DNA of 63,353 bases, filler included, from Folioceros fuciformis (taxonomy: Eukaryota), in the NCBI GenBank assembly GCA_049999805.1. It is 16 parts of 16 records of this genome, joined end to end, with 100 filler letters (N's around TTAATTAATTAA, not from the genome) between each part and the next. Parts side by side here need not be neighbours in the genome. Positions count along the whole stretch, not along the records: positions 29,396 to 42,081 come from JBNGIO010006640.1; 15 more parts are not named here. The stretch is one strand, 5' to 3'. Position numbers and translations under genes: made by a program. The stretch's first letter is position 1, and every line of letters starts with the position of its first letter. The notes under the pieces were generated by a model that saw nothing but the letters and a program-made list of their open reading frames with translations, made no database searches and was not told the DNA's origin. Shown piece after piece: positions 3,700-47,504 of the stretch.

Positions 3700-3799
3700 N
3701 NNNNNNNNNNNNNNNNNNNNNNNNNNNNNNNNNNNNNNNNNNNTTAATTAATTAANNNNNNNNNNNNNNNNNNNNNNNNNNNNNNNNNNNNNNNNNNNN
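3700..3799. other. Artificial contig-joining spacer N44-TTAATTAATTAA-N44 (first of 15; others start at 7399, 11473, 13071, 14687, 17280, 23915, 29296, 42082, 48637, 49802, 55458, 57002, 58528, 59826)
   Basis: Identical 100-bp structure each time; TTAATTAATTAA gives stops in all six frames. Confidence 0.98.
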
Positions 3800-27499: not shown

Positions 27500-28846
27500 A
27501 TGCGGATTGGAAAGAGGAAGCGGCAGATGGACTCAACAGGCTGTGGCGAAGGAGCGTCAACGTTGCCGGACGATGTTTTATTCGAAATCCAAGCTCGGCT
27601 ACCGATTGTGAGTTTAGTGCGATCACGCGCGGTGTGCAAAACCTGGAAGGAGGCCGTGGATTCTCCGAACTTCTTGGTGCAGGAAAGGCTGAAATGGAGG
27701 GCAAGGACAGGAGTAGGAGCGCGGGAACATATGCTCCTGGTGGTAGGATTTCGACTGGGCGAGTCGGAGAGGACGAAGGCGCCAGCCATGGCCATGGTCT
27801 CCAGCGCCTACGACCCTGCCTCTGACCGTTGGTACGAGCTCCAGGTGGGGCCCGGGCTCTGGTGGTATGAGCCCGAGCCGATCCGCACGCACTACTACGA
27901 GGTCAACCCACACTCAGGTCTACGACTGGTGAAGGAGGAGCACAAAGGGCATGTGCAGTTGACCCGGGCATCCTTGTCTCCGGGTGTGTTGCTGGCGAGA
28001 TCGTGTCGCGATGCAAGAACTAGAGAAAATAAGGTCTTCATTCACATCGGTAATCCTTTGGCGGGATCCTGGGCCAGCTTGCCGAAGTTGCCGGGTGAGT
28101 TGTGTATGTACCATTTGTGCGGCGTGCTGGTAGACACCGTGGCACGGCGCTTGAAGGTGGTGATGGCCGAGAGCAGGCTTGCGCCTTTGCGTCCTTTAGT
28201 CCCCATAGTTCCCGTGGGCACGTCCACATTTGTGTTCGACTCAGCGCTGGGAGCGTGGACTAGAACAAGCACCGACATTCCCCTGCATGATGACTTCCAC
28301 GCGGAGGCTGGGGAGGGAGTATTCATTCGCAACGTGCTCTACTGCCTTACTGTGTCCTGCAATCTGCTAGCCTACGATCTAGAGGCAGCTAGGTGGACGC
28401 ATTTGCGGGTGGGCAACAGTGCTGTCTTCCTCAGCGACGTTCATCACTCCACCCTCCGGCTCGTCAGCGTGCAAGACCGGCTGCTTTGCACGGCGTTCCA
28501 TAGTGAGGACCATATGCTTAACCGTCTGCAGATTTGGGAGGTGGACCTGGCATCTACGGCTTGGAAAGTGGTGGACTTTATGCTTATGCATCCTTACAAG
28601 GACATTGCCCGCCTGTACGTGTGCTCGGTCGTGGCTGCGCCAGACGATGTTGTTTACATCATGCGGGAGAGCGAGGAGAGACAGGACGAGATCACGATTG
28701 TGGCTGTCGATTTTCGACAAAAACTTCCAACTTGGAGGCTACTTCCTTGTTTACGCTACAATGGGTTTACGAGGAAGAGCCTGTACTGCTTTGATCCTTG
28801 GTTGCAATTTGGCACCTGGGATATGGGGTCCCTTCATGAAGAGTAG
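27500..28846 (+). CDS. F-box protein (probably kelch / beta-propeller C-terminus), intronless
   Basis: F-box LPDDVLFEIQARLPIVSLVRSRAVCKTW; AYDPASDRW, NPLAGSWASLP, FVFDSALGAW, LLAYDLEAARW repeats; N-terminal KRKR. Confidence 0.9.
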   Translation: MRIGKRKRQMDSTGCGEGASTLPDDVLFEIQARLPIVSLVRSRAVCKTWKEAVDSPNFLVQERLKWRARTGVGAREHMLLVVGFRLGESERTKAPAMAMVSSAYDPASDRWYELQVGPGLWWYEPEPIRTHYYEVNPHSGLRLVKEEHKGHVQLTRASLSPGVLLARSCRDARTRENKVFIHIGNPLAGSWASLPKLPGELCMYHLCGVLVDTVARRLKVVMAESRLAPLRPLVPIVPVGTSTFVFDSALGAWTRTSTDIPLHDDFHAEAGEGVFIRNVLYCLTVSCNLLAYDLEAARWTHLRVGNSAVFLSDVHHSTLRLVSVQDRLLCTAFHSEDHMLNRLQIWEVDLASTAWKVVDFMLMHPYKDIARLYVCSVVAAPDDVVYIMRESEERQDEITIVAVDFRQKLPTWRLLPCLRYNGFTRKSLYCFDPWLQFGTWDMGSLHEE

Positions 28847-31695: not shown

Positions 31696-34600
31696 TCAGC
31701 AGAAAGCAGTCTCTTTTGTCATCTGCGGAGAAGCACAAGTCAACTTCGTTTCACTTGGGCGCTGTTTCTTCTCCTTAACCGAAAAGTTATGGACCAATCC
31801 GTCCATATCTGTCCACCAGCTTAGGCCTGGCTGCTTCCACGCACTCATTCGTTTCCTCTTCACCTGCATGTCATGTGCCTTATCCCACATCTGGGCACCA
31901 TTGTATATGTTGGACATCAACACATACGCCGTCGCATCTTTAGGGTCAAGCTTCACTGCTTCCTTGAAAGCATGGCGCCCCACTTCGACGTTGCTCCACT
32001 TTTGGCAACCACCCAGTAGAGAATGCCAAATGGCGGCGTCAGGTACTACAGGCATTGTCCTCACTAAACCTAGCGCCTTGTCCAATTGTCCTGCACGTCC
32101 CAAGATATCTACCATGCATGTGTAGTGAGCTGTAGTGGGAATGATGCCATACTCTGTGCTCATAGCCTCAAAATACTCTCGCCCCTTTTCCACGAGACCG
32201 GTATGACTACATACGGTTAGTACACTGAGAAATGTGATGCCGTCTGGCTGTAAGCCATCCTCTCTCATTTTAAACACCAAGTCAAACACCACATCACTCT
32301 CTCCCTGTCTGCTGTATCCTGCCACCAGAGCACTCCAGATGCCAACGGTTCTTTCGGGCAAGGCATCAAACGCCTGCTGTGCATCAACCATGCTACCACA
32401 TTTCCCATACATGTTAATTAAACTGCAGACGACAAGCACATCAGTTTGAAGCCCAGATTCTTCGATCTGTTTATGAAGCTGCCTTCCAAAATCCAAAGCT
32501 GCCACATTAGCACATGCCTGCAGCAGACACACAAATGTCATAGAATTGGGTGCAACTATGCCTTCTTCTTGCATAGCTTTGAAAATGTCAAGGGCTTCCT
32601 GCCGCATGCCGTGTTGAGAATAGCCTGCAATCATGGCATTCCACATCACCACAGTTTTTTGACCAAGTTCATCAAATACGCCCTGCGCATCCTCTAAGCT
32701 GCCACACTTTGCGTACATGTTAACCAGACCGCTGGCCACAAACATATCAGCTTGAAGTCCGTCTTCTCTGATCTGCGCATGAAGTTGCTTTCCCTTCTCC
32801 AAACCTGCGTTACCCAAACTAGCACAAGCCTGCAGAAGGCACAAAAATGTCACAAAATCAGGCGCCAAGATGCCTTCTCCTCGCATAGCACTGTAGAGGT
32901 CAAGGGCTTCCTGCCCCATTCCCTGCTTGGAATACCCTGCTATAAGACATGTCCACATCACCACATCTTTTTCATCAAACCCATCAAACACTCGTCGAGC
33001 GTCCTCCAAGCTCCCACATGTTGCATACATCTTTATTAAACTGCTGGCTACAAATAAATCTGCATCGTACCCTTGTTCCCTTATTTGTACATGAAGTTGT
33101 CTCCCCTTCTCCATAGCTGTGGCGCCCAAACTTGCACATGCCTGAAGGACAGGCACAAACGTTAACGAGTCAGGAGGAGTATTGCCTTTGTCTTGCATAG
33201 CACTGAATAGATCAAGAGCTTCCTGCCCCAAGCCCCGCTGAGAATATCCTGCAATCATGGCATTCCAGGTCACCACAGTTTTTTGAGCAAGACTCTCAAA
33301 AAATTTCCTAGCATCTTCTACGCTCCCACACTTTGCATACATATTCACGATGCTGCTGCCTACAACGACATCATCCTGCAGACCCAGTTCCTTAATCTGT
33401 GCATGAATCTGCTTCCCCTCCTCAAGCGCCAGATTTCTCAGATCAGCACATGCCTGTAGGACTGACACCAACGTCAAAGAATTGGGTGCAGCCATGCCTT
33501 CTTCTTGCATAACACTGTAAAGACGAAGAACATCCTGACCCAAGCCTTCCAGAGCATATCCTGCTATCATGGCATTCCACGTCACAACATCTTTCTGGGA
33601 CAGTCCGTCAAACAAGACTCGAGCGCTTTCTAGGCTGCCACACCTTGCATACATGTCTACCAGTTTGTTCGCTACCCCCACATCTGCATGAAGTCCCAGT
33701 CCCCTTATCTGTGCATGAAGCTCCTTCCCCTCTTGCAAAAATGGGGTGCCTCCGCTGGCACATGCCTGAAGGAGGGACCCAAATGTCACAGAGTCCGGTA
33801 TAGATGTGCCCTCTTCTCGCAAAGCTCTGTAGACATCAAGGGCCTCCTGCACCCTGCCCTGCTGAGAATATCCTGCTATCATGGCGTTCCAAGTCACCAC
33901 AGTTTTTCTACCAAGTTCCAGAAACACACCCTGAGCATTCTCTAAAGCCCCACATTTTGCATACATGCTTATCAAACTGCTCGCGATAAAATCATCTGTT
34001 TGAAGTCCTTGTTCCTGAATCTGCGCATGGAGCTGTTTCCCCTGCTCCAGCGCCAGGTTGCCCAAACTTGCACATCCCTGTAGGAGGGACACAAATGTCA
34101 CAGAATTGGGTGCAATGGCACCTTCTTCTTGCATAGATCCGTAAAGATGAAGGGCTTCCTGCCCCATGCCCTGCTGGGAGTACCCTGCAATCATAGCACT
34201 CCATGTCACAACATTCCTTTCACTAAGCCTGTCAAATATTCTTTGAGCGTCTTCCAAGCTACCGCATTTTGCATACATGTTTAGTAAACTGCTGGCTACA
34301 GACACGTCAGCTAGAAGTTCTTGTTCTCTTATTTGAGCATGCAGCTGCTTTCCAGTCTCTAAACCCAAGGTGCCCACACTTGCACACGCTTGCAGGAGGC
34401 AAACAAATGTTACAGAGTTAGGCGTAACATTACTCTCTTCTTGCATAGCTTTGTATACTTGAAGGGCTGCCTGGCCCATCCCCCTGTGAGAATATCCTGC
34501 TATCATGGCACTCCATGTCACCAGATCTTTTTGAGGAAGCCCATCAAATACTCTTTGAGCATCCTCCAAGCTGCCACATTTCACATACATGTTCACCAAG

Positions 34601-36189
34601 CTGTTGGCTACAAACACATCACCCTGGAGCCCTCGTTGTCCAATTTGTGCATGTAACGCCTTCCCTTTCTCCAAAGCGGAGGTGCCTACACTGCTACATG
34701 CGTGCAGGAGGGACACATATGTAAAAGAATCGGGTGAAGTCACACCTTCTTCTTGCATGGCGTTGTAAAGACAAAGGGCTTCCTGCCCCATGCCCTGTTG
34801 GGAATATCCTGCTATCATGGAATTCCATGTCACCACGTTCTTGTCACTCAGTCCATAAAAAATGTCCCGAGCGTCTGCAAGGCTGCCGCACTTTGCATAC
34901 ATGCTTACCAAAGAGCTCGCTACGAACACATCAGGTTCAAGCCCATGTTGTCTAATGTGCGCATGCAGCTGCTTCCCAGTCTCCAGCGCCGAGATGCCCA
35001 AACTTGCACAGCCCTGCAGGAGGCACACAAAAGTCACAGAATCAGGTGAAATGTCGCATTCGCCCTGCATGGTTCTGTACAGATGCAGGGCTTCCTGCCC
35101 CATGCCTTGCTGGGAATAGCCTGCTATCATGGTACTCCATATCACCACATTTTTTTTATCAAGTCTGTCAAACACTCTTTGAGCGTCTTCCAAGCTGCCA
35201 CACTTTGCATACATGTTCAGCAAACTGCTGGCCACAAACAGATCAGCTTCAAGTCCTTGTGCTTTGATAGCTATATGAAGCTGCCTCCCTTTCTCCAAAG
35301 CAGGGGGTCCTACACTTGAACATGCCTGCAGGAGACACACAAACGTCACAGAGTCTAGACAAACCAGCCCCTCTTCTTTCATATCGTTATAAAGACAAAG
35401 CGCTTTGTGCCCCATACCCTGCTGGGAGTATCCAGCTATCATTGCATTCCACGTCACCACATCTTTCTGGGGAAGGCCGTCAAACAATCGTTGAGCGTAG
35501 TCCAGGTGGCCACACTTTGAATACATGTCCACTAAACAGCTAGAGACAAACAGGTCAGGCTCAACTCCAGTATTCAACACATCAGCATGGACCTGCTGCC
35601 CAGATTTTAAGTCCGCTCCCCTCCCACAAGCCTGAAGGGCTGCTACAAATACATGGCCATCCGGCTTCACATTTGAACTGCGCATCCGGTGATATAGTTG
35701 AATGGCCTGCTTATCCAGTCCATGTTTAATATGCGCGGAAATGATGGCAGACCACGTGAAGGCGTCTGGGTTGCTAGTCACAGAAAACACCTCCACAGAT
35801 TCGTGCAACCTAGAATGAGAAGCATACATTCGCAGGATGTGATTGCACAGGAACGTGTCCGACCCATACCCCCCCCTCACGGACAGAGCATGAACACGGC
35901 GACCTAGAGGCAGATCCTTCCTAGCCACACACAGTCTCAGCACCGAATAAAACAGGGATCTGGAAACGTAGCAATCCGTGTGCATCAGCACTCCCAGAGC
36001 CTCCACAGCTTCACTGCACTGCCCATACTGACATAGCCTGCTCACGGTGTCAGCCGTTACGCAAATTTCGTACCCTGCAGACCTGGATGTAGGGACGAGA
36101 CGATCCACATGAACATCAAGAGCATCCAGCTGGGCATTCACCCAAGCTGACTTGTGCAACTTGTCTAGCCTGGAGCACCTTCTGGCCAT
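31696..36189 (-). CDS. Very long PLS-class PPR protein with E domains and truncated DYW:WW-type C-terminus (start codon uncertain)
   Basis: About 12 P-L-S triplets (12 MYxxCG-type S motifs; mostly 37-aa long L motifs), HYTCMVDILGRAG, AYVLMSNIY, then KQPGLSWW..VHNF and a stop with no HxE/CxxC. First in-frame ATG is at 36189; the ORF stays open to 36351. Confidence 0.93.
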   Translation of the reverse strand: MARRCSRLDKLHKSAWVNAQLDALDVHVDRLVPTSRSAGYEICVTADTVSRLCQYGQCSEAVEALGVLMHTDCYVSRSLFYSVLRLCVARKDLPLGRRVHALSVRGGYGSDTFLCNHILRMYASHSRLHESVEVFSVTSNPDAFTWSAIISAHIKHGLDKQAIQLYHRMRSSNVKPDGHVFVAALQACGRGADLKSGQQVHADVLNTGVEPDLFVSSCLVDMYSKCGHLDYAQRLFDGLPQKDVVTWNAMIAGYSQQGMGHKALCLYNDMKEEGLVCLDSVTFVCLLQACSSVGPPALEKGRQLHIAIKAQGLEADLFVASSLLNMYAKCGSLEDAQRVFDRLDKKNVVIWSTMIAGYSQQGMGQEALHLYRTMQGECDISPDSVTFVCLLQGCASLGISALETGKQLHAHIRQHGLEPDVFVASSLVSMYAKCGSLADARDIFYGLSDKNVVTWNSMIAGYSQQGMGQEALCLYNAMQEEGVTSPDSFTYVSLLHACSSVGTSALEKGKALHAQIGQRGLQGDVFVANSLVNMYVKCGSLEDAQRVFDGLPQKDLVTWSAMIAGYSHRGMGQAALQVYKAMQEESNVTPNSVTFVCLLQACASVGTLGLETGKQLHAQIREQELLADVSVASSLLNMYAKCGSLEDAQRIFDRLSERNVVTWSAMIAGYSQQGMGQEALHLYGSMQEEGAIAPNSVTFVSLLQGCASLGNLALEQGKQLHAQIQEQGLQTDDFIASSLISMYAKCGALENAQGVFLELGRKTVVTWNAMIAGYSQQGRVQEALDVYRALREEGTSIPDSVTFGSLLQACASGGTPFLQEGKELHAQIRGLGLHADVGVANKLVDMYARCGSLESARVLFDGLSQKDVVTWNAMIAGYALEGLGQDVLRLYSVMQEEGMAAPNSLTLVSVLQACADLRNLALEEGKQIHAQIKELGLQDDVVVGSSIVNMYAKCGSVEDARKFFESLAQKTVVTWNAMIAGYSQRGLGQEALDLFSAMQDKGNTPPDSLTFVPVLQACASLGATAMEKGRQLHVQIREQGYDADLFVASSLIKMYATCGSLEDARRVFDGFDEKDVVMWTCLIAGYSKQGMGQEALDLYSAMRGEGILAPDFVTFLCLLQACASLGNAGLEKGKQLHAQIREDGLQADMFVASGLVNMYAKCGSLEDAQGVFDELGQKTVVMWNAMIAGYSQHGMRQEALDIFKAMQEEGIVAPNSMTFVCLLQACANVAALDFGRQLHKQIEESGLQTDVLVVCSLINMYGKCGSMVDAQQAFDALPERTVGIWSALVAGYSRQGESDVVFDLVFKMREDGLQPDGITFLSVLTVCSHTGLVEKGREYFEAMSTEYGIIPTTAHYTCMVDILGRAGQLDKALGLVRTMPVVPDAAIWHSLLGGCQKWSNVEVGRHAFKEAVKLDPKDATAYVLMSNIYNGAQMWDKAHDMQVKRKRMSAWKQPGLSWWTDMDGLVHNFSVKEKKQRPSETKLTCASPQMTKETAFC

Positions 36190-37193
36190 GGAATTCCCTT
36201 TGTCGGAACGTAGGCGGATGGCAGCTATTCGACAAGAGCTCCAGGTGGCCAAAGTACTTGTTTCCAGCCACACATCCTGTCGAACCGATTGCCTTCCTTT
36301 CCAAGGTGCTGCGCCAAGCGCCTTCTTCGTTCGGCGATTCTTGGTGTCCAAATGTCAGGAGAACACCATCTGTCAACCTCCCGATATCCATGGCGTAGAC
36401 CCACCCCCTGCAGCTGGAACACAAGACGCTTCTACCACCCACAACATGACCTGAGGAGTTTCCGCAGCCCCCTGGCCTCCAAACCATAAACGTAGATGCG
36501 GAGCATGCCATACTAGACCAATTCTCTGTCGAGATCATCCGCTATATCCATTAGACTATGGGCAACACTCCAGGGACATCCACCAGTGTGTTGGCGGCCC
36601 TTGCAAGCATGCAGGATGGAAAACGTGTGGACGGCCAAAATTGTGATCGACAAACGTCACATCAGGGCCTTGTCACTGAGGCAGTTGAGGTGTATGGAGC
36701 ATATGCGTTGGAAGCTCTCCGGGCCTGTGCAAAGGGGCTCGGACTTTGGAATCTGGGTAGCAGACACTTGACTTTTTGGCCAGTGGATTTGAGAATGGGC
36801 TGTTTGTACGTGATCATTTTTCGATCATGAAGTCCAAGTGCATGTGTCGCAGGTGGCCAGAAAACGCTTAACAAGTTTGGACAGAAAGATCTGCAGGCCT
36901 ACCATCTAACCAGCCTGCCTAGAAGGGTGTATGACACCTGGATCTCGATTCAATTTAATTCAAAAATATGGTGATGTCCCTCACACAAACCCCCCAAAGC
37001 TCTGTCACAAACACATGACAGAGAATCCCCGGAATCTCTGAAGCCTTCGTTCTGCTGTGAGTGACGGATCAGGTTTCGCATCCACTTAATCTCGGATGTT
37101 GAACGGGATCGGTTTATAAAGCACCCTCGTACCCAAGAGAAATCGGAAAGTTCTTGGGCCTAGACAGTTGAGTGATATCGAGTTCTTCTCTCC

Positions 37194-39803
37194 TTACAGT
37201 CGACCCTTACAACTGCAAGACCCAGCTGCGAATCGATGTACACGGTACCCGTCCCTCACAACAAAGTCCCTCTGTTCAAGCCTTGACATGATCTCCGTGG
37301 AACTGTGGCAGTCACTACACATGCGTAGATTTTTCGTTACCACCAGGGGTGTCCCACTCGGAGTGTTCAGGAGACCAAATGCCAGAGCTAGCTTCTCAGC
37401 ATGACCACAAAGCACGTCTTCCTTTCCCTGTTCACACAGTGGCTTCAACACCAATTTTGTGTCGGGCACGTGGCCTCCTTCCTCCTTCAGACGTGCATTC
37501 GTGCTCTGTACCTTGAGGGCAATATCCTGTCCCCTTTCTCCCACAAGAAATCTATGCACCTGGTTGTTCACCTCAATAGTAGCCACTGCAGGTTTCTTGG
37601 TAGCTCCTGATACCGTTCTCCGTCTTTCAATTCTGTCTACATCGGTCCACCTACCGGCATCTGCGTAGGCATTGGCCATGAGCACATACGCAGACGCTCT
37701 TTGAGCGTCCAGCCTAACAATGCTTTCAAAACACCACAACGCCCTCTGTATATCCCCGTGATTTTTGCAGGCATTCAACAAAGACATCAACCCCACAACA
37801 TTATTTTGGCTCTCGCACGACAACAGAATCTTCTCCGCCTCCTTCAAATGACCTGCGCGCCCAAGAAGATCAATCATGCAATTGTGATGCTCAATAGTAG
37901 GTTTTATGCCATGCTGATCAGCCATGGAACCAAAGTGCTTGCGACCCTCAATGACCAATCCCTGATGACTGCATGCTGCTAGAAGGCAAGTAAAAGTAGC
38001 ATCATCAGGCCGAATACCGGCAACTAACATCTCCTCGAAACAAGCTAGTGCTCTCTGACCATCATCACAACTACCATACCCAGATATCAGAGCATTCCAT
38101 GTCACAACATCCTTTTTGGCCAAGCTATCAAAAACACGTAGTGCATCTTCCAGTTGACCACATTTTGCATACATGTCCACCAGGCAGTTGCCCAAGACTA
38201 CGTTATCCAGCAGTCCTCTTTCTACAATTTGTGCGTGCAGCTGCCTGCCCTTCTGTAAGGCACCAGTGCTTGCACAAGCTTTCAGAAGGCAAGCAAAAGT
38301 AACATCGTCAGCCAAAATGAGGCCCTCCTCCTGCATTCGTGCATAGACAACAAGCGCCTCTTGGCCGAGTCCTTGCTGTGCATACCCAGCAATCAGCGCT
38401 GTCCATGTCACGACATTCTTTGTCGCCATGCCGTCAAAAACCTGACGAGCATCTTCCAGTTCCCCACATTTTGAATACATGTCCACCAGGCAGGTGCCCA
38501 TCAGTGTATCATTCAGCAGTCCTCGTTCGACGATCTGTGAGTGCAGCTTCCTGCCCTTCTGCACAGCACCCGTGCTTGCACAGACTTTTAGAAGGCAAGC
38601 AAAAGTCACATGGTTAGCAAGAACCAGGGTCTCCTGCTCCATTTGTCCATACATAGCAAGTGCTTCTCGGCTGAGCCCTTGCTGCGCATACCCAGCAATC
38701 AGGGTCGTCCATGTCACCACATCCTTTGTAGCCATGCTGTCAAAAACCTGGCGTGCGTCTTGCAGATCACCACATTTTGCATACATGTCCACTAGGCAGG
38801 TGCCTACAATCAAGCCAGTAGGGATGCCACTGCGCAATACATCACAGTGCACTTTTCTGCCAGATTCCAAGTCGCCGGCAAATGCACATGCTTGAAGGGC
38901 AGCCACAAAAACGTGAGCATCCGCTTTCACTCCTGATCTACGCATCTCATGGTACAGCTGTATGGCCTCATTAGGCTTGCCATGCTTAGCATGTGCCGAA
39001 ATTATGGAAAACCACATAAAGGCATTTGGTTTGCCCACCTTGGTGAACACATCTAGGGCCTCCTCCACCCTACCTCCACTCGCATACATGCGCAATATAT
39101 GGTTCCCCAGAAATGCATTCGACTCGTGCCCAAGTCTGATAGTGAGATCATGTACTCGTCGCCCCAAACCCAAATTCTTCTTCGCTGTACACAATTTCAG
39201 CACAGTGTAAAACAGAGACGGAGAAATAGCAGAGGCTGTCTGCGCCAGGGATTCCAGGGCTCCCACGGCCTCGGAAAGCTGCCCCTGCTTGCACAACGTG
39301 CTCACAGTTCCAGCCGTCACGACGCCCATTTTCAATCCTGCCCGCCTGTCAGGTACATTCTTAAGCGGAAAGCAGCTCAGCGTTGAAGAGGAGGCACCAT
39401 GACCCGTCTGCATGTCCAAGGAATCGAGCTGCTCATCAACACAGGCCGGTTTGGACCTGTTGTTTAACCACAGGACCTCGCCAGACCCCTTACGCCGGAA
39501 GTCAGGCGAACCGGAGCGGTTTTCATCTCGCCTGCTATCGCACCACATGGTACGATCCGGAAAAAATTGCTGCCACAAGTGCTCCTGCTCCTGGCGACTA
39601 CCATCGCTGGAAAGCCTATGTCCTCCCACAAATTTGCTCGGAAGTGGAAGTGCTGGGCTCCCTACACTCCCGCACCTGGAGGATTGGTTATTGTTCAGAG
39701 GTTGATTCCCTTTGGTGAGATGAACGGGAGCTTCTCGTAGAATCCCTGTACATACGCCAATTTCTTGGATCCACAGCGGGTCACGTTGGCATACCGCGGA
39801 CAT
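37194..39803 (-). CDS. PLS-PPR protein with DYW:KP (GRP-like, ends GRL) deaminase domain and N-terminal PDF-like motif; candidate U-to-C editing factor
   Basis: PLS repeats, KKPAVATIEV, HAEKLA, KNLRMCSDCH, C-terminus SCSCKGRL*; N-terminal LWQQFF..WCDSR..SPDFRRK..LWL. Confidence 0.94.
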   Translation of the reverse strand: MSAVCQRDPLWIQEIGVCTGILREAPVHLTKGNQPLNNNQSSRCGSVGSPALPLPSKFVGGHRLSSDGSRQEQEHLWQQFFPDRTMWCDSRRDENRSGSPDFRRKGSGEVLWLNNRSKPACVDEQLDSLDMQTGHGASSSTLSCFPLKNVPDRRAGLKMGVVTAGTVSTLCKQGQLSEAVGALESLAQTASAISPSLFYTVLKLCTAKKNLGLGRRVHDLTIRLGHESNAFLGNHILRMYASGGRVEEALDVFTKVGKPNAFMWFSIISAHAKHGKPNEAIQLYHEMRRSGVKADAHVFVAALQACAFAGDLESGRKVHCDVLRSGIPTGLIVGTCLVDMYAKCGDLQDARQVFDSMATKDVVTWTTLIAGYAQQGLSREALAMYGQMEQETLVLANHVTFACLLKVCASTGAVQKGRKLHSQIVERGLLNDTLMGTCLVDMYSKCGELEDARQVFDGMATKNVVTWTALIAGYAQQGLGQEALVVYARMQEEGLILADDVTFACLLKACASTGALQKGRQLHAQIVERGLLDNVVLGNCLVDMYAKCGQLEDALRVFDSLAKKDVVTWNALISGYGSCDDGQRALACFEEMLVAGIRPDDATFTCLLAACSHQGLVIEGRKHFGSMADQHGIKPTIEHHNCMIDLLGRAGHLKEAEKILLSCESQNNVVGLMSLLNACKNHGDIQRALWCFESIVRLDAQRASAYVLMANAYADAGRWTDVDRIERRRTVSGATKKPAVATIEVNNQVHRFLVGERGQDIALKVQSTNARLKEEGGHVPDTKLVLKPLCEQGKEDVLCGHAEKLALAFGLLNTPSGTPLVVTKNLRMCSDCHSSTEIMSRLEQRDFVVRDGYRVHRFAAGSCSCKGRL

Positions 39804-40224
39804 CCTTCAAGCACCGCAGTCCGGAGTTCACTCGCCCAGTAGCAGCACATGCACTATGACATGATGCCCAGGTACTGTGTGTGAGCATTCTAGAGACCGG
39901 CAACTGAGTTCATCGTCGGTAAGGCACCTAGGTAAAACGAGAACGGTTTCAAAGTTTCGGATACACGCAGCAGCCCGAATGTCAAGTAGGCTTATTCAAG
40001 GCCTGTCCTGACTAGATCAGTCCTATACAGTTTGCTCGTCGCACAAGGGAGAGGTTCATTCGCTTCTGAACTCCAAGCCTGCCTATTATGATGAAGGGAA
40101 ACCTGTTGGCCATCCACGTCCATGTCTCAGTTTGGGAAGGGATGAACCTAGAAATGTTCACCCACAAGAGAGCAAGCAATTTTCTCTGGCATACACAGTG
40201 GCAAACGCCTGTACTTCATTACTA

Positions 40225-42081
40225 TCACGGTCGACCCTTACAACTGCAGGATCCAGCAGCGAATCGATGCACACGGTACCCATCCCTAACAACAATGTCT
40301 CTTTGTTCGAGCCTTGACATAATCTCTGTGGAACTGTGGCAGTCATTGCACATGCGTAGATTTTTGGTGACCACTAAAGGTGACCCACTGGGAGTGTTCA
40401 AGAGACCAAACGCCAGGGCTAGCTTCTCAGCATGCCCACACAGCAACTCCTCCTTCTCCTGCTCACACAGTGACTTCAACACCAAATTTGTTTGAGGTAC
40501 GTGGCCTCCTTCATGCTTCACTCGTGCATTTGTACTCTCTACCTTGAGCGCGATATCCTCTCTCCTTTCTCCAACCAGGAATCGATGTACCTGCTTGTTC
40601 ACCTCAATGGTTGCCACTGCAGGCTTCTTGTTCGCTCCTGCTACCATTCTCTGTCTTTCAATCCTGTCCACATCGGTCCACTTACCTGCATCTGCGTAAG
40701 CATTGGCCATGAGCACATACGCAGACGCCCTTTCAGGATCAAGGCTCACAATACTTTCAAAACACCGCGCCGCCCTCTCTACATCCCCGTGACTTTTGGA
40801 CGCGTTCAACAAAGACGTCAACCCCACAACATTACTTTGACCATCGGACCACAAGAGCATCTTTTCTGCCTCATCTAAATGGCCTGCACGTCCAAGAAGA
40901 TCAACCATGCAATTGTGATGCTCGACAGTAGGTTTAATGCCATACTGTTCAGCCATGGAATCAAAGTGCTTGCGACCCTCATTGACCAGTCCCTGATGAC
41001 TGCATGCAGCCAGAAGGCAGGTAAATGTAGCAACATCAGGCTGAACACCAGCAACTAGCATTTCCTCGAAACAAGCTAGTGCTTTGTGACCGTCATCACA
41101 ACTACCATACCCAGATATCAGGGCATTCCATGTTACCACATTCTTCGTGGCCAGGCTGTCAAACACCCAGCGTGCATATTCCAAGTCACCACATTTCGCA
41201 TACATGTCCACCAGGCAGTTGCCCAACACAACTTTATGGAGCAATCCTCTCTCAACAATCTGTGCGTGCAGCTGCCTGCCCTTCTGTAGAGCACCAGTGC
41301 TTGAACAGGCCTTCAGAAGGCAAGCGAAAGTAACATCGTCAGCCAAAACGAGGCCCTCCTGCTCCATTTGTTCATACACAACAAGTGCCTCATGGCCAAG
41401 TGCCTGCTGTGCATACCCAGCTATCAGCGCTGTCCACGTTACAACATTTTTTGTGGGCATATTGTCAAAAGCCTGGCGTGCATCTGCAGGCTCACCACAT
41501 TTAGCATACATGTCCACCAGGCAGGTGCCCACCTGTATGTCATCAAGCAGTCCTCTTTCAACAATCTGTGAGTGCAGCTGCCTGCCCTTCTGTAAGGCGC
41601 CAGTGGTCGCACAGGCCTTCAAGAGGCAAGCAAAAGTAACATTGTCGGCCACCAGCAGGCCCTCCTCCTCCATTTGTGCATAAACAACAAGTGCTTCTTT
41701 GCCAAGCCCTTGCTGTGCATACACAGCAATCAGCGCCGTCCATGTCACTACATTCTTTGTGGTCAAGCTGTCAAAAATCCGTCGCGCATCTTCCAGTTCA
41801 CCACATTTTGCATACATATGAGTCAGGCAATTGCCCAGCGCTACGTCATTCAGCAATCCTCTTTCAGCCATCTGTGAGTGCAACTCCCTGCCCTCCTGTA
41901 AAGCCCCAGTGCTTGCACAAGCCTTCAGAAGGCAAGCAAAAGTAACATCATCGGCCAAAATGAGGCCCTCCTCCTCCATTTGTCCATACAGGACAAGCGC
42001 CTCGTGACCAAGTCCTGCATGCGAATACCCAGCAATTAGTGCCGTCCATGTCACCACATCCTTCGTGGCCAAGCTTTCAAA
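40225..42081 (-). CDS. PLS-PPR protein with DYW:KP GRP-type domain, 5'-truncated by contig end
   Basis: KKPAVATIEV, HAEKLA, CNDCH, ends SCSCKGRP*; close paralog of 37194-39803. Confidence 0.95.
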   Translation of the reverse strand, partial: FESLATKDVVTWTALIAGYSHAGLGHEALVLYGQMEEEGLILADDVTFACLLKACASTGALQEGRELHSQMAERGLLNDVALGNCLTHMYAKCGELEDARRIFDSLTTKNVVTWTALIAVYAQQGLGKEALVVYAQMEEEGLLVADNVTFACLLKACATTGALQKGRQLHSQIVERGLLDDIQVGTCLVDMYAKCGEPADARQAFDNMPTKNVVTWTALIAGYAQQALGHEALVVYEQMEQEGLVLADDVTFACLLKACSSTGALQKGRQLHAQIVERGLLHKVVLGNCLVDMYAKCGDLEYARWVFDSLATKNVVTWNALISGYGSCDDGHKALACFEEMLVAGVQPDVATFTCLLAACSHQGLVNEGRKHFDSMAEQYGIKPTVEHHNCMVDLLGRAGHLDEAEKMLLWSDGQSNVVGLTSLLNASKSHGDVERAARCFESIVSLDPERASAYVLMANAYADAGKWTDVDRIERQRMVAGANKKPAVATIEVNKQVHRFLVGERREDIALKVESTNARVKHEGGHVPQTNLVLKSLCEQEKEELLCGHAEKLALAFGLLNTPSGSPLVVTKNLRMCNDCHSSTEIMSRLEQRDIVVRDGYRVHRFAAGSCSCKGRP

Positions 42082-42228
42082 NNNNNNNNNNNNNNNNNNN
42101 NNNNNNNNNNNNNNNNNNNNNNNNNTTAATTAATTAANNNNNNNNNNNNNNNNNNNNNNNNNNNNNNNNNNNNNNNNNNNNATCAGAGTAACCCTAGTGG
42201 CGTGGTTACAGACTTTTCAGTCTTAACA

Positions 42229-42572: not shown

Positions 42573-45500
42573 TCAACTGGATGGGAGATACTCAAGGGAA
42601 TCGGTAATCCCCATCTCTTCAAGAAAGAACATATGCTTAGCCTTAGAAAGAGCCTTGGTAAGCAAGTCGGCTAGGTTTAGATCTGTTGGGATGTATTCAA
42701 TCTTCACAATCTTGCGCTCAACTGAATGTCGCACAAAATGGTGCTGGATTCCGATATGTTTCGTCCGGGCATGGAAACGAGGGTTGCCGACTAACGCTAT
42801 TGTCGATTGGTTGTCACAATACACGCGGGTTGGTTGAGCCTGTGGAAACTGAAGATCTGCAAGGAAACTGCGGGCCCATACTGCCTCCTTCGCTGAATCA
42901 GTCAAGGCCTTGTATTCAGCCTCGGTGGAGGAAAGGGCTATAGTGACTTGCTTTTTCGTACTCCAGGTGACCACAGCACCACATAAAGTGAAACAGTAAG
43001 CTGAAAGGCTGCGACGAGTCTCTGGATCGGAAGCCCAGTCGGCATCAGCGAAGCCTTGAAGAACAAAGTCAGACTCTGGAGAAGTACCTCGGTAACAAAC
43101 TCCATATGTTGACGTGCCCTTCAAATACCGCAGAATGCGTTTAACAGCACCCCAATGCTCTTTGCCAGGTTTTTCGAGGAACTGCGAAACACAGCTGACG
43201 GCATGCTGGATGTCGGGACGGGTCCAGCAAGCTATATAATTAAGACAGCCAACGGCATGGCGGTAAGGAACTTCTGCCATGTCCTGGAATTCAGCATCTG
43301 TCTGTGGAGAGTGTGCAGAAGTAAGCCTTGCACCAACTACTCCCGGGGTACTAACGGGTTTTGCTTGATCAAGATGGAAACGTCGCAGGGTTTCATTTAT
43401 ATACTTTGTCTGGTGCAGAATAAGAGTCTTCTGAGCACGATCCCTTAGGAGCTGAACTCCAAGCACAAAAGTAAGAGCTCCGATGTCTTTCATCTCGTAT
43501 TGTTTGTGAAGCATCTGCTTAATCCAATCCATGAGCTCTCGGCTATCTGATGCTAGAATGGCATCATCAACATAGAGAGCTAGAATAACAATGTGTCCGT
43601 GCCTAATGTGGATGTAGACGTTGGAATCAGCAGAGCTCTGTGTGAAACCTATCGATTTGAGGTAAGCATCGATAGTTTTATACCATTCCCTTGCACTTTG
43701 TTTAAGCCCGTATATCGTTTTCTTAAGCTTGCAAACCCAAGTTGGATGCTGAGGATCTACGAAGCCCTCCGGCTGTTCCATAAAAATATCTTCTTCCAGC
43801 TCCCCATAAAGGAAAGCCGTTGATACGTCCATCTGTTCTAGATCCCAGTCACGAGCAGCTGCTAAAGCTAGAATCATCCTGATGGATTGAGTTTTGACCA
43901 CAGGGCTAAAGGTATCTGTGTAGTCTACACCAGCCACTTGGGAAAACCCTCGAGCAACGAGTCTGGACTTGTATCTTGCAATATGTCCTTGAGCATTCAG
44001 TTTATGCTTAAATACCCACTTGCAACTGACGGCCTTACGGCCAGCAGGTAAAGGGCACAGCTCCCAAGTTCCATTTTTAACAAGTGAATTGTATTCATCT
44101 TGTATAGAGGGAAGCCACTTATCTTTGTCGCGACCGGTAATGGCCTCCTTATAGGATCTGGGCTCAGGAGGATGCTCCAAGGAAGAGGAGAAAACGGCAG
44201 GTAAACTCGTGACCAACCTGGTAGATCTAGTGTTCCGAAAATCAATAGCTTCGTATGGTCTTTCCTGCCACTGAGATCTAGGGTTCCGTGTCCTGCTAGG
44301 ATACCTAGGCTCGGCAGGGATGGGAATATCCGGAACAGGAGGATCTTGGTCATCATCTGAAGCAACAATATTCTCGTCCAGTGAATCAGTCAGAGGGGCT
44401 GGAGACACTACAGCAGTAGGTAAGTCTTCAGAGTGTGCTGCGAGAGGTTCATTCAAGTCATCATCAGACATAATCAAATCTGCAGGTGTGGAGGCATCCT
44501 CCTGTTGTTGATCAGGCAAAGGAGATGCCAGCGGAGAAGTAGGCTGCGGATTTTCAGATGATGGTAAGGGATCACCCCCTGAACCACTAGCAGGCATTCC
44601 CTCTGAAGAAGAAACCATATATAGGTCGTGAGGAAATTCGGAAACAGAAGTGTCAAAATCATCCGCAGTAAAGACGGGAGGAGGTACATCAGCAGGATGA
44701 GAAACAGCAGGTTGAGTAAGCTCCTTGAAAGTGACACTGCGGGCATAAATACATGACCGAGAAATAGGGTCATAAAGCTTGTAAGCCTTGGTCTCTTCAC
44801 CATAACCAACAAAAATATAGGGCAGTGCACGGGCATCTAACTTCTTGCGTTTTTCTGCAGGAACATAGGCATATGCAGGAGACCCAAAGACACGAAGATG
44901 GAGTATGCTGGGTCGACGCTGCCACATAACTTCGAACGGAGTACGCCCTGGTACAGAATCCGTAAGTAGACGATTCAAAATATATGTTGCTGTAACAACA
45001 GCCTCTGCCCAGTACGATTTGGGCAGGCCAGACCACTGAAGCATGCTGCGAGTCATGCCCAGCTGAGTTTGCTGACGACGTTCGGCTACACCGTTTTGTT
45101 GTTGGGTGTAGGGAACAGCAAGCTGGCGTAGGATGCCACGGTCTGCAAGAAACTGGTCAAAAGCTGGATTCACAAACTCGCCCCCGTTGTCAGAACGCAA
45201 GCAGCGAAGAAGCCGACCCGTCTGACGCTGAACCATGGGAAGCCACTCTTGAAATACCAGGAAGGTATCTGATTTCTTAGTAAGAGGATATGTCCAGCAG
45301 TATCTGCTATAGTCGTCAATCAAGGTGAGGTAGTAATTGGAGCCTCCCAAAGAAGGAACATGTATCTTGCCAGATATGTCCGTGTGCACAAGATCAAGGA
45401 CGTTAGAGGTCCTGTGAGCAACAGCAGTTGGAAAAGGTAACTCCTTTTGCTTGGCCAAAATACATGAGTCACAAAGGGGAAGTTCCTTGAAACATTTAGG

Positions 45501-47504
45501 CAGCGGCTCCCTATAGCAGTCCACAGTGGACATTTTTAGAAGTCTGTTTTTGTTTGCATGTCCTAAACGAGCATGCCAAAGTAGGGCTAACGAGGACTGT
45601 GTGTTGGCAGCCACAGAAACCCTGTGCGCAGGTTGACAACATATGTCCAGCTTATAAAGGTCATCGACCAAGATCCCTCGAGCTAGGGGAACGCCTTGTG
45701 CAGCATCTGTGTGCGTAAGCGTGCAACCAGATACCGAAAAGCTGAGATTAAATTTTCGAAGCTTCATAAGCTGGCTAACGGACAGGAGGTGCTTGGCCAT
45801 GGTAGGGACATATAAGACGTGATCAAGCTGAAGAGCGGTGCCATCCTTCAGTTGAAAGGTACAAGAGCCTTTGCCGTGAATCTTAAGGCCTGTCTGTGAA
45901 AGTTCATCTCCCAGAAGAACCTTCTCATTTGTTCTTGTAGGAATGAAATTAGTAAGCAGGTTCTTATTGTGGCAAATATGGGAAGTTGCTCCCGAATCCA
46001 GATACCACGAATCAGGTTCACAAACGGAAATGTGATGACACACAGTCATCACCACAGGCGGCTTGCTGGAGGAAGAAGACCTGTCTTTGGAAACTGAATG
46101 CGCCTCAACCACCTTCTGGGTCTTCTCGGCCTTTTTCGGTTCTCCATTTTTCTTCTTCTTGCATTCACGTTCCCAGTGCCCTGGGATGCCACACCAATTA
46201 CATGAGCCTGCCCGCTTGCCAGATACTGGTTTGGAAGCACCAACACCAGACGTGTGTTTTCCTTTCCCTTGAAATTTTTGTTTATTCAAGTAAAGGACCT
46301 TATCAACCTTTGTCTTTCCAGGTGAATGGTGGCCCCGACTTTGCTCTTCTTGGAGTAAGGCGCCAACCACTTCAGTGAATGAAATCTGGGGAGCCAATCC
46401 AAGAGCTGCAGCTTGCTGTGCAGCATTGAGAATGGCACCGTAGCTGGATACAAAGGATTGATAACTGGGAGGCAAGCTGCTTAGTAATTGTGCAACGGCA
46501 TTGACATCATCAAGTTGTGTCCCCAATGAAATCAGCTGGGAACGTAAGAGCCTGAACTTGGCAACAAAGGTACCAACTTTCTCACCCTCCTTCATGCGCA
46601 GGGAGAATAGCTCGGTTCGTACGTGGCACAGGGTATGAATGTTCCTCACATCATGTGTCTGTGCCAGTTGCTTCCAGATGTCCTCAGCCTTTAAGAGATA
46701 AGCAACATCGGGAACAAGCACTTCATCCAGCCCACTAATGAGCAAAGCACGAGCAACACTGTTTGCATTAACCCACCTGTCTCTATCATCCTGAGTAGCA
46801 GTGGGTTGAGGTTCAGGGTACTGTCCTGTCACAACGGACCAAACGTGTCGAGCTTCAAGTGCAGCTCGCATACGCACACTCCAGACAGGGTATTTAGTTC
46901 CATTAAACCTGTCACGTTCTTTGAACTCAATGGTATAGGCAGGCTGATAAACGTGCTGTGGTGTCGTTGGTGAACCAGGACCAGGAGATGTCGGTTGTAC
47001 AGGAGGAACAGGAGGAACGGGCGGTGGTGGATTAGAAGATGGTACAGGAGGAAATGTAGGTGGAGGTGGCACGGGCGGGACTTGTACATAGCCAGCTGGG
47101 CCACCATACGAACCATAATTTCCACTAAGACCTGTGTACCAATTTGGAATCCCGAAGCCTCCCGGTGCAGCATATAGACCAGCCAGAGGATTCGGAAACA
47201 ATCCACCGCTTCCGAGAGCAGGCGCACCAGGTATGTGCTGGGCGCTTTCCCCAGGCACATTAGAGACACCCCCTGCCGCAGGAACTCTGCCAGGAACGGT
47301 GGCTCCCCCTGTATTCCCTGTCCCGAATCTCCCGAGAGGAGTCTGAGTTCCGTGAGCTTGTGCAGCGACGCCTCCAGGATGGCCCGCAGTCGAAGCAGGA
47401 GAGCTTCCACCACCTCCCGTGCGCGTTGCGGGAGAGGCCAAGCCGTCTGCTTCTGCCGAGTCATCCTCGTCACCAGAACCAAACTGTATCCCCCTGGTAC
47501 TCAT
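42573..47504 (-). CDS. Copia Gag-Pol polyprotein (gag, Zn knuckle, protease, integrase, RT, RNase H), 1643 aa
   Basis: CNWCGIPGHWEREC, WYLDSGATSH, LWHARLGH, DDYSR, SDNGGEF, LVARGFSQ, LYVDD, FADADWA, SSTEAEY, RTKHI, ADLLTKAL. Confidence 0.97.
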   Translation of the reverse strand: MSTRGIQFGSGDEDDSAEADGLASPATRTGGGGSSPASTAGHPGGVAAQAHGTQTPLGRFGTGNTGGATVPGRVPAAGGVSNVPGESAQHIPGAPALGSGGLFPNPLAGLYAAPGGFGIPNWYTGLSGNYGSYGGPAGYVQVPPVPPPPTFPPVPSSNPPPPVPPVPPVQPTSPGPGSPTTPQHVYQPAYTIEFKERDRFNGTKYPVWSVRMRAALEARHVWSVVTGQYPEPQPTATQDDRDRWVNANSVARALLISGLDEVLVPDVAYLLKAEDIWKQLAQTHDVRNIHTLCHVRTELFSLRMKEGEKVGTFVAKFRLLRSQLISLGTQLDDVNAVAQLLSSLPPSYQSFVSSYGAILNAAQQAAALGLAPQISFTEVVGALLQEEQSRGHHSPGKTKVDKVLYLNKQKFQGKGKHTSGVGASKPVSGKRAGSCNWCGIPGHWERECKKKKNGEPKKAEKTQKVVEAHSVSKDRSSSSSKPPVVMTVCHHISVCEPDSWYLDSGATSHICHNKNLLTNFIPTRTNEKVLLGDELSQTGLKIHGKGSCTFQLKDGTALQLDHVLYVPTMAKHLLSVSQLMKLRKFNLSFSVSGCTLTHTDAAQGVPLARGILVDDLYKLDICCQPAHRVSVAANTQSSLALLWHARLGHANKNRLLKMSTVDCYREPLPKCFKELPLCDSCILAKQKELPFPTAVAHRTSNVLDLVHTDISGKIHVPSLGGSNYYLTLIDDYSRYCWTYPLTKKSDTFLVFQEWLPMVQRQTGRLLRCLRSDNGGEFVNPAFDQFLADRGILRQLAVPYTQQQNGVAERRQQTQLGMTRSMLQWSGLPKSYWAEAVVTATYILNRLLTDSVPGRTPFEVMWQRRPSILHLRVFGSPAYAYVPAEKRKKLDARALPYIFVGYGEETKAYKLYDPISRSCIYARSVTFKELTQPAVSHPADVPPPVFTADDFDTSVSEFPHDLYMVSSSEGMPASGSGGDPLPSSENPQPTSPLASPLPDQQQEDASTPADLIMSDDDLNEPLAAHSEDLPTAVVSPAPLTDSLDENIVASDDDQDPPVPDIPIPAEPRYPSRTRNPRSQWQERPYEAIDFRNTRSTRLVTSLPAVFSSSLEHPPEPRSYKEAITGRDKDKWLPSIQDEYNSLVKNGTWELCPLPAGRKAVSCKWVFKHKLNAQGHIARYKSRLVARGFSQVAGVDYTDTFSPVVKTQSIRMILALAAARDWDLEQMDVSTAFLYGELEEDIFMEQPEGFVDPQHPTWVCKLKKTIYGLKQSAREWYKTIDAYLKSIGFTQSSADSNVYIHIRHGHIVILALYVDDAILASDSRELMDWIKQMLHKQYEMKDIGALTFVLGVQLLRDRAQKTLILHQTKYINETLRRFHLDQAKPVSTPGVVGARLTSAHSPQTDAEFQDMAEVPYRHAVGCLNYIACWTRPDIQHAVSCVSQFLEKPGKEHWGAVKRILRYLKGTSTYGVCYRGTSPESDFVLQGFADADWASDPETRRSLSAYCFTLCGAVVTWSTKKQVTIALSSTEAEYKALTDSAKEAVWARSFLADLQFPQAQPTRVYCDNQSTIALVGNPRFHARTKHIGIQHHFVRHSVERKIVKIEYIPTDLNLADLLTKALSKAKHMFFLEEMGITDSLEYLPSS

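Follow-up and report, generated by a model that had tools for sequence, protein, structure and literature searches.

A candidate editing factor of Folioceros fuciformis with an OSB-type PDF motif ahead of its PPR array

The PPR editing factors of early-diverging land plants are believed to do without the helper proteins known from seed plants, and they are being developed as programmable C-to-U and U-to-C RNA editors. In hornworts, the HxE(x)nCxxC site of the DYW:KP proteins reads HAE, not HSE, their C-terminal triplet is GRP or DRH in place of DYW, the PG-box region differs, and a GRP subgroup is recognized, according to the passages of PMC9478123 that describe them. The relevant passage of PMC13386178 describes MORFs as trans-acting and confined to seed plants. 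Accessory domains of PPR proteins include the RRM of PPR4, which a passage of PMC9459714 places at the N-terminus.

The OSB proteins carry the PDF motif, which is approximately 50 aa long and is defined by a Pro-Asp-Phe signature in the passage of the review PMC6963530 that introduces it. Review passages also state that the OSB1 PDF motif suffices for ssDNA binding (PMC6963530, PMC4166229, PMC6451138), that OSB1 and OSB2 prefer ssDNA over RNA (PMC4166229), and that AtOSB2 forms a tetramer (PMC6963530). Pfam has no model of the PDF motif, and an OSB-family survey retained only proteins that also had an OB-like domain, according to passages of PMC13393729. Domain surveys of this kind would have missed an architecture in which the PDF motif precedes PPR repeats. 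The sequence-only reading of the locus described here was aware of no description of this architecture, and our full-text literature search likewise found no published description, although supplements may hold a mention.

Domain layout of the ORF

The window that we analysed is a stretch of 63,353 nucleotides of Folioceros fuciformis DNA, filler included. An ORF on its minus strand contains, in this order, a leader, a PDF module, a linker, a PLS-type PPR array, an E motif and a DYW:KP domain (Table 1). The motif string quoted in the sequence-only reading was found on the minus strand, in frame within this ATG-to-stop ORF and ahead of the PPR-E-DYW:KP body; the interval assigned to it, 39414..39578 (residues 76-130), includes the motif and extends four residues beyond the quoted 51-residue string. 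The Pfam matches on the ORF are strong for PPR (E = 1.6e-74), E_motif (1.6e-12) and DYW_deaminase (2.1e-31), with PPR matching nine stretches of the array and PPR_2 seven, and a search with residues 1-158 returned no family at E ≤ 1 and no SSB domain (PF00436).

Table 1. Features of the PDF-PPR ORF, in positions of the window
Feature	Position	Strand	Basis
Whole ORF, 869 aa + stop	37194..39803	minus	ORF call, translation, Pfam
Leader, residues 1-65	39609..39803	minus	predicted disordered, poorly conserved
PDF module, residues 66-134	39402..39608	minus	OSB homology, predicted fold, conservation
PDF conserved core, residues 76-126, 51 aa	39426..39578	minus	
Linker, residues 135-163	39315..39401	minus	predicted disordered, poorly conserved
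PPR repeat array, residues about 164-681	37761..39314	minus	Pfam, predicted helix pairs
E motif (Pfam PF20431), residues 682-744	37572..37760	minus	Pfam
KPAVA box, residues 737-741, at end of E motif	37581..37595	minus	
DYW-family deaminase domain, residues 777-867	37203..37475	minus	Pfam; HAE 801-803, CSDCH 829-833

The KPAVA box stands in place of the PG box, no match to PG.S was found, and the pattern KPAxA is presumably the KP-type box that replaces it. The deaminase site begins with HAE at residue 801 and continues with CSDCH at residue 829, and the C-terminal triplet is GRL, compared with GRP in P0150, the closest relative. Judged by these features, the ORF appears to encode a PPR protein of the PLS class whose E motif is followed by a DYW:KP domain of the hornwort 'GRP' kind, and its product is a candidate U-to-C organelle RNA-editing factor.

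The 165 codons before the first PPR helix are open in the ORF frame and are interrupted by stops in both other frames; in-frame ATGs lie inside the ORF at residues 86, 132 and 159. The leader is a putative organelle presequence, and three of its first 24 residues are acidic, an uncommon trait in a presequence. Because the contigs of the one run (X1) that covers the ORF stretch also span the intergenic DNA at 39566-40282 and 36600-36804, they are uninformative on the transcription, start site and introns of the ORF.

Within the window, neither tblastn nor the PDF profile run on all six frames found a second PDF copy. The neighbouring paralogue at 31696-36189 keeps at most the last (C-terminal) helix of the PDF module, which indicates that the module can be lost, and a blastn comparison of the 5′ regions of the PDF-PPR gene and this neighbour gave no match in the stretch before the ATG of the neighbour. 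Two TE-truncated paralogues lack an N-terminus altogether, and a tandem paralogue at 40225-41979 ends in GRP.

Homology, conservation and predicted fold of the PDF module

A word-indexed protein search with residues 60-140, run at near as well as shorter lengths, returned no match at E ≤ 10. These blanks are attributable to the index limit, as an index-free phmmer search then recovered the family. With residues 1-165 as the query against 1.84 billion representatives, phmmer retrieved 219 proteins at E ≤ 1e-3, including 38 at ≤ 1e-10 and three at ≤ 1e-30, with a best E-value of 5.9e-39. Among the 150 matches listed of the 219, the best-scoring stretches lie at query residues ~19-158, nearly all inside ~60-145, the matches are centred on residues ~65-135, and 14 are PPR proteins. 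Three of ten non-PPR matches that we looked up are named OSB proteins (OSB3 of Chenopodium and Amborella, OSB1 of Populus), and the other seven are unnamed or 'hypothetical', with one (Coptis) being a kinesin-domain model. A search with profile A1 gave 83 matches, of which 14 are PPR proteins and 69 are not; by our count of the matches listed, the SSB domain (PF00436) is present in 65 of these 69, and many are named OSB1, OSB2 or OSB4.

An HMM derived from OSB proteins alone had been proposed as the check on this homology. Built from 74 PDF segments of 64 OSB-type proteins, it scored the ORF at 56.9 bits, compared with a maximum of 8.3 bits over 2000 shuffles of the same 70 residues. The Pro-Asp-Phe signature itself is present as P100-D101-F102 in the core of ~50 aa. 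On this sequence evidence, residues 76-126 are confirmed as genuinely homologous to the PDF motif of OSB proteins. The reading that the PDF consensus is matched by chance, to which we give virtually no credence, is refuted by the database-wide E-values and by the OSB-only profile against the shuffles.

Residue alignments were based on whole proteins, and the column statistics and the tree on excised PDF segments. Compared with 419 other PDF copies, the copy in the ORF keeps all of the near-invariant W, W, D, R, K, P-D-F, L-W, P and W positions except at three residues: E94 is K in 98% of the other copies, C121 is W in 93% and C in none, and R84 is P in 89%. A Cys at the position of C88 is known from other natural copies as well. 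Overall, this copy matches 17 of 25 consensus columns; the median over copies is 20, and 17% of copies match equally few or fewer. The two Trp-to-Cys replacements that had been noted from the sequence, C88 and C121, are both real; the departures at E94 and R84 had been overlooked.

Against P0150, residues 76-126 are 51% identical and residues 166-869 are 50.7% identical, whereas the flanks of the motif reach only 23% (residues 1-65), 10% (66-75) and 23% (127-165). This comparison with the closest relative shows, at the sequence level, that conservation of the PDF motif equals that of the PPR body. P0150 itself has RDF in place of PDF and a 2-residue insertion, and among 27 PDF-PPR proteins the OSB-profile score is lowest for the ORF product, P0150 and P0071 (51-58 vs 72-88 bits).

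The structure prediction that had been suggested as a further check gave a confident result. AlphaFold2 models the PDF module as a folded alpha/beta unit (helix, three short strands, helix), with a pLDDT of 82.8 when the module is modelled alone. In a model of residues 1-330, the module scores 74-92, residues 1-64 and 134-156 fall below 50, and the repeats from residue 164 exceed 90. The module is predicted to fold by itself, with disorder on both sides, in the leader and in a linker of ~25 aa. Foldseek found no match to the module in the PDB at E ≤ 0.001, and the best Z that VIA-align reached over 48,161 chains was 3.9, with none at ≥ 5. For the modelled module, no known fold can be named, and the absence of a match does not make the fold new.

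Distribution of PDF-PPR proteins

In at least 28 database representatives, a PPR array is preceded on its N-terminal side by one, two or three PDF copies. The named sources, which fall within 27 of the 28, are Sphagnum, Riccia, Diphasiastrum, Selaginella, Adiantum, Ceratopteris and Pteridium, and the 28th is an angiosperm gene model that is probably merged. The PDF motif is N-terminal to the repeats in all 36 PPR-type sequences, cluster mates and the ORF included, and in 27 further PPR proteins, drawn from five plant lineages, a short variable leader precedes the in-frame module. The C-termini of the PDF-PPR representatives comprise canonical DYW, E-type and short non-editing forms.

The expectation that the motif would occur in many PLS PPR proteins was borne out in lycophytes and ferns and also in Sphagnum and Riccia. 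A special link to the DYW:KP type is not supported: of eight DYW-bearing PDF-PPR proteins, only the ORF product and P0150 are KP and six are of the HSE...DYW form, other PDF-PPR proteins are E-type, and those of Riccia have neither E nor DYW. By its sequence distribution, the PDF-PPR fusion is neither unique to this ORF nor KP-specific. These sequences show that the 'PDF then PPR' architecture recurs among hornwort-type proteins and those of mosses, liverworts, lycophytes and ferns, combined with any C-terminus.

In a tree of 420 PDF segments, the PPR-borne motifs cluster: the label changes 12 times, compared with a mean of 32.1 after shuffling, and none of 500 shuffles was as low as 12. The tree is built on 65 columns with most forks unresolved, and it bears on clustering rather than on the number or direction of fusions. 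The cluster mates P0152-P0158, P0255 and P0257 were left out of it, as were identical segments and those that covered less than 50 positions of the profile. Among the 'other' tips inside the PPR groups are several short fragments, which may be N-termini of PPR proteins.

Proposed role and comparison with known systems

We consider it moderately probable, taking the whole reading together, that the ORF encodes a PDF-bearing PLS PPR-E-DYW:KP protein in which a tethered unspecific single-strand binder serves as a general accessory. After removal of the presequence, the mature protein would still carry the PDF module, flexibly tethered and binding single strands without sequence specificity. The N-terminal repeats of PPR proteins read the 5′ end of the target; therefore, the module would be located on the 5′ side of the PPR footprint. 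It may hold neighbouring unpaired RNA, or it may hold the protein on the ssDNA of the nucleoid or of a transcription bubble, and either form of holding would raise affinity or local concentration. The RNA-holding version is weakened by the preference of OSB1 and OSB2 for ssDNA over RNA in the review passages (PMC4166229). In either version, the module would be a general PPR accessory that stands outside the U-to-C chemistry.

The departures of this copy could also mean that the fusion is old and functional elsewhere, and that in the hornwort-type GRP lineage the module is an inactive, drifting relic. The charge reversal at E94, the loss of Trp at C121 and the change of P to R at residue 84 point in this direction, as do the low OSB-profile scores of the ORF product, P0150 and P0071, the RDF and the insertion of P0150, the neighbouring paralogue with at most the C-terminal helix and the two TE-truncated paralogues without an N-terminus. 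However, the motif of this protein (P0001) is as similar to that of P0150 as the PPR bodies are, far above the flanks; the frame is intact, the fold is confidently predicted, and 17% of natural copies fit the consensus no better. We hold such decay to be unlikely. A still smaller probability is given to the module lying outside the mature protein, through a downstream start at M132 or M159 or through removal with the transit peptide. The in-frame ATGs and a leader unlike a textbook presequence are consistent with this, but the 165 codons are open in the ORF frame only, the order of short variable leader and in-frame module recurs in 27 further PPR proteins of five lineages, and the peak of sequence conservation falls exactly on the module; in our view this reading is very improbable.

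Loss or removal aside, the module could be present and serve oligomerisation or docking to another organelle factor (for example, OSB, Whirly or the nucleoid proteome) instead of direct nucleic-acid binding. The tetrameric state given for AtOSB2 in PMC6963530 would suit this, and the invariant W77, W87, F102, L111 and W112, mostly aromatic or hydrophobic, fit an interface and base stacking alike; moreover, no solved fold resembles the module, and hence the fold provides no hint. Against a protein-protein module stand the sufficiency of the OSB1 PDF motif for ssDNA binding, as the reviews state it, and the conserved R91, K94 (in the family) and K105, which suit phosphate contacts. We judge it improbable, and single-strand binding by the tethered module is the reading that we retain.

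If this reading is true, a conserved single-strand-binding module on natural factors of five plant lineages would be a new PPR accessory domain and a first physical link from the OSB-type DNA-maintenance toolkit to RNA processing, and the PDF module would be a candidate part for better designer editors. The suggestion of the sequence-only reading that the module stands in, in cis, for MORF-type cofactors absent from bryophytes is pure inference and is not supported. A wider and doubtful proposal, to which we assign a low probability, is that PDF-PPR proteins are an undescribed ancient land-plant class that was lost in seed plants, in which the tethered binder shared with OSB proteins would couple processing or editing to the nucleoid or the transcription bubble, or would replace MORF-type help in cis.

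Compared with OSB1-4, the ORF product shares a module of ~50 aa with conserved LW, FF, W.D.R, PDF, LW and P.WV...L, and like the OSB proteins it is presumably organellar. Unlike them, it has no central OB-fold/SSB-like domain, and has PPR, E and DYW instead. The PDF motif of OSB proteins is C-terminal, after the OB-like domain, whereas the ORF has a single N-terminal copy followed by the PPR array; K94 and W121 of the family are E and C in the ORF, and in the PDF tree the PPR-borne copies cluster apart from most OSB-borne copies. The likeness to the hornwort PPR-DYW:KP GRP subgroup extends over the PPR array, E motif, KPAVA, HAE and CxDCH; the end, GRL, is similar to the GRP of P0150 and of the tandem paralogue. 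The ORF differs from this subgroup in having an N-terminal extra domain, of which the relevant passages of the hornwort DYW:KP descriptions make no mention (PMC9478123, PMC11845758, PMC11332814). With MORF/RIP proteins, the likeness would lie only in the proposed help in substrate holding by a PLS-type PPR protein; PDF-PPR proteins were found only outside seed plants, bar the one probably merged gene model, whereas MORFs belong to seed plants. The list of PPR accessory domains in the relevant passage of PMC9459714 does not include PDF, and the listed accessories sit on P-class proteins, whereas PDF here sits on PLS/E/DYW proteins. The PDF-PPR protein resembles the PPR proteins with accessory domains (RRM in PPR4, SMR, LAGLIDADG, NYN, CBS, SAP) in that a helical-repeat reader of RNA is combined with a small nucleic-acid-related module.

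Architecture and neighbourhood of the reading frame

The main ORF encodes 869 aa from ATG to stop and lies within a PPR gene cluster that is interrupted by Ty1/copia elements. Its frame is open across all 165 codons ahead of the first PPR helix, and both other frames contain stops there. The sequence-only reading had placed an OSB-type PDF motif in this stretch; the 51 residues that it quoted are residues 76-126 (39426..39578), and its interval overran them by four residues. Over residues 1-158, Pfam gave no family at a cut-off as loose as E<=1.

PMC9478123 describes the DYW:KP type as differing from the canonical DYW:PG type in the PG-box region, the HxE site (with a KP-specific Ala) and the last triplet, and hornwort DYW:KP proteins comprise the DRH and GRP subgroups. 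The main ORF carries KPAVA at residues 737-741, HAE at 801 and CSDCH at 829, and ends in GRL; GRP is the last triplet of both P0150, its closest database relative, and the tandem paralogue at 40225-41979. Because of these features, the body of the main ORF is classed as a GRP-type DYW:KP protein, and a hornwort is the most likely source of the window.

Features of the main ORF and its surroundings, with positions along the window unless residues are given
Feature	Position (strand)	Remarks
Main ORF	37194..39803 (-)	
PPR, nine stretches	in main ORF (-)	Pfam
E motif	residues 682-744 of main ORF (-)	Pfam
DYW-family deaminase domain	residues 777-867 of main ORF (-)	Pfam
E-type PPR, neighbour of main ORF	31696-36189 (-)	1497 aa
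GRP-type PPR-DYW:KP paralogue	40231-42081 (-)	74% identical to residues 253-868 of main ORF; ends GRP; without N-terminus
Copia gag-pol ORF	42573-47504 (-)	1643 aa; apparently intact Ty1/copia; beside the truncated paralogue
PPR-DYW:KP fragment (GRP-type)	48737-49801 (-)	
PPR-DYW:KP fragment (GRP-type)	58629-60098 (+)	
Further copia fragments	457-2433, 3931-6750, 13379-14296 (+)	integrase, RVT_2, gag-pre-integrase
GTP cyclohydrolase I domain ORF	17855-19105 (+)	E 8.6e-67
F-box domain ORF	27500-28846 (+)	E 2.7e-9

The N-terminal region is missing from the paralogue and both fragments (40231-42081, 48737-49801 and 58629-60098), each of which adjoins copia sequence or masked runs. Within its first ~30 residues, the 1497-aa neighbour has a stretch that blastp aligns to residues 113-135 of the main ORF, where the module ends in its last helix, and the conserved Trp is retained. 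The earlier two thirds of the motif left no trace there or upstream, and the stretch may be the remnant of a truncated module. Paired 44-N runs split by 12 bases occur at 14 places in the window (e.g., 3700-3743 with 3756-3799 and 42082-42125 with 42138-42181), together with three 100-N runs. These runs look like masking or scaffolding marks; many lie next to transposon ORFs, and two PPR fragments have their 5′ sides obscured by them. The GTP cyclohydrolase I and F-box ORFs look like ordinary nuclear genes between transposons.

Homology, fold and state of the PDF module

Queried with residues 1-165, phmmer searched 1.84 billion cluster representatives and matched 219 proteins at E<=1e-3; of these, 38 reached <=1e-10 and 3 reached <=1e-30. 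Among the best 150 of the 219, the best-scoring stretch always fell within query residues ~19-158, nearly always ~60-145, and many targets had multiple matching stretches (up to 13), as expected for OSB proteins, which carry repeated PDF motifs. Ten hits of non-PPR type were checked for source names: three are named as OSB proteins (OSB3 in Chenopodium quinoa and in Amborella, OSB1 in Populus), and seven had no name or were "hypothetical", one of them, from Coptis, a kinesin-domain model. Profile A1, built from 27 sequences, matched 83 proteins in a 5.8-billion collection; among the 69 of them that are not PPR proteins, Pfam SSB (PF00436) was counted in 65, and many bear the name OSB1, OSB2 or OSB4. 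The OSB-derived profile that the sequence-only reading had called for was made from 74 PDF segments out of 64 OSB-type proteins, and it gave the main ORF 56.9 bits, whereas 2000 shuffled versions of the 70-residue piece reached at most 8.3. The only gap in the alignment to OSB copies is a one-residue indel, which those copies typically show. The PDF homology of the motif is thereby confirmed.

Between the main ORF and P0150, identity is 51% (26/51) over residues 76-126 and 50.7% (357/704) over the PPR-E-DYW body, compared with 23% (1-65), 10% (66-75) and 23% (127-165) in the flanks. Conservation therefore peaks on the module, the pattern expected of a functional domain between presequence and linker. 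The proposed structure prediction also favoured a folded unit: with A1, AlphaFold2 modelled the 70-residue piece as helix, short strands and helix (mean pLDDT 82.8, pTM 0.62). For residues 1-330, modelled with an alignment of 18 PDF-PPR proteins (A2), pLDDT was below 50 for 1-64 and 134-156, 74-92 in the module and above 90 in the PPR helices from 164. The predicted picture is of a folded module on a flexible linker. Foldseek found no solved structure like the modelled module, and the best VIA-align Z was 3.9.

A real rival to a functional domain is that the module is decaying in this lineage, because substitutions fall at near-invariant positions and the OSB-profile scores are the lowest found. 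Compared with 419 other PDF segments, the main ORF departs at three positions: E94 stands at a site that is K in 98% of them, C121 at one that is W in 93% and C in none, and R84 at one that is P in 89%. The main ORF, P0150 and another database protein, P0071, score lowest of 27 PDF-PPR proteins (51-58 bits vs 72-88). Over the 25 columns with a consensus of at least 60%, the main ORF keeps 17, compared with a median of 20 in the others, 17% of which keep 17 or fewer; the variant C88, at the second residue of "WW", is present in other natural copies too.

In sequencing run X1, which is DNA-like, summed contig depth is 1502 over the motif core (39414-39547) vs 84 and 206 in adjoining bins; of two single-copy contigs, one ends at 39495 and the other begins at 39566. 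The X1 organism could have many loci with a near-identical PDF core, which is only a lead, as contig depth cannot rank gene parts.

Recurrence and origin of the PDF-PPR fusion

The fusion is real and recurrent. A PPR body (blastp to residues 166-869, E<1e-5) is present in 14 of the best 150 of the 219 phmmer matches, and PPR Pfam families in a further 14 of the 83 A1-profile matches. Named sources are Diphasiastrum complanatum (6 different clusters) and Selaginella, the ferns Adiantum capillus-veneris (3 clusters), A. nelumboides, Ceratopteris richardii and Pteridium aquilinum, and, among mosses and liverworts, several Sphagnum species, Riccia fluitans and R. sorocarpa. [quoted passage not shown] The only angiosperm case, P0255 of Kingdonia, has an SSB domain (85-179), a PDF motif (213-269) and then PPRs, an order suggesting that the gene model has run an OSB gene and a PPR gene together. 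In another angiosperm model (P0072, Coptis), PDF or OSB sequence adjoins a kinesin motor; the Kingdonia models P0003 and P0255 have 13 PDF repeats in 1160 aa or PDF/OSB joined to a PPR array. These three are probably merged neighbouring genes, and a multi-repeat OSB among them may be real.

The C-termini vary. DYW:KP is found in the main ORF and P0150, canonical HSE...CxDCH...DYW in six proteins (Sphagnum, Diphasiastrum and one JGI/NCBI cluster) and the E motif alone in others; the Riccia proteins (458 aa), from a genus placed among the marchantioids, have neither E nor DYW. The module is thus not tied to the KP type. A special KP link and the proposed substitution for MORF cofactors are not supported; the homology and fusion claims of the sequence-only reading stand. 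RNA editing is missing from marchantioid liverworts, according to PMC6865856. If that lack extends to Riccia, the module has no fixed tie to editing either.

A FastTree phylogeny was built from 65 columns of 420 PDF segments, of which 33 are PPR-borne; on it the PPR label changes 12 times, compared with a mean of 32.1 under shuffling, where 0/500 runs came as low. All but one of the 33 PPR-borne copies (32) lie in two groups, together with short fragments that are possibly PPR N-termini themselves. The pattern agrees with one or a few old fusions that then spread as the PPR family did; the 65-column tree is too short for more.

Relation to known OSB and PPR proteins

Full-text literature searches turned up no paper that connects PPR proteins with the PDF motif or OSB, and a prior mention elsewhere is possible. 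A moss PPR review lists RRM, LAGLIDADG, SMR, NYN, CBS and SAP as accessory domains, PDF not among them (PMC9459714), and a 2026 kingdom-wide editing-factor survey has neither OSB nor PDF as a term (PMC13386178). A 2026 OSB-family survey required a PDF and an OB-like domain together, a rule that would have removed PDF-PPR proteins (PMC13393729).

According to reviews (PMC6963530, PMC4166229 and PMC6451138), the PDF motif of OSB1 is enough for ssDNA binding, its OB-like fold is not, and OSB1 and OSB2 prefer ssDNA over dsDNA or RNA. By analogy with OSB, the module on PPR proteins may act as a tethered, unspecific single-strand binder placed 5′ of the PPR footprint, where it could add affinity for unpaired RNA or, alternatively, anchor the factor on the ssDNA of nucleoids or transcription bubbles.
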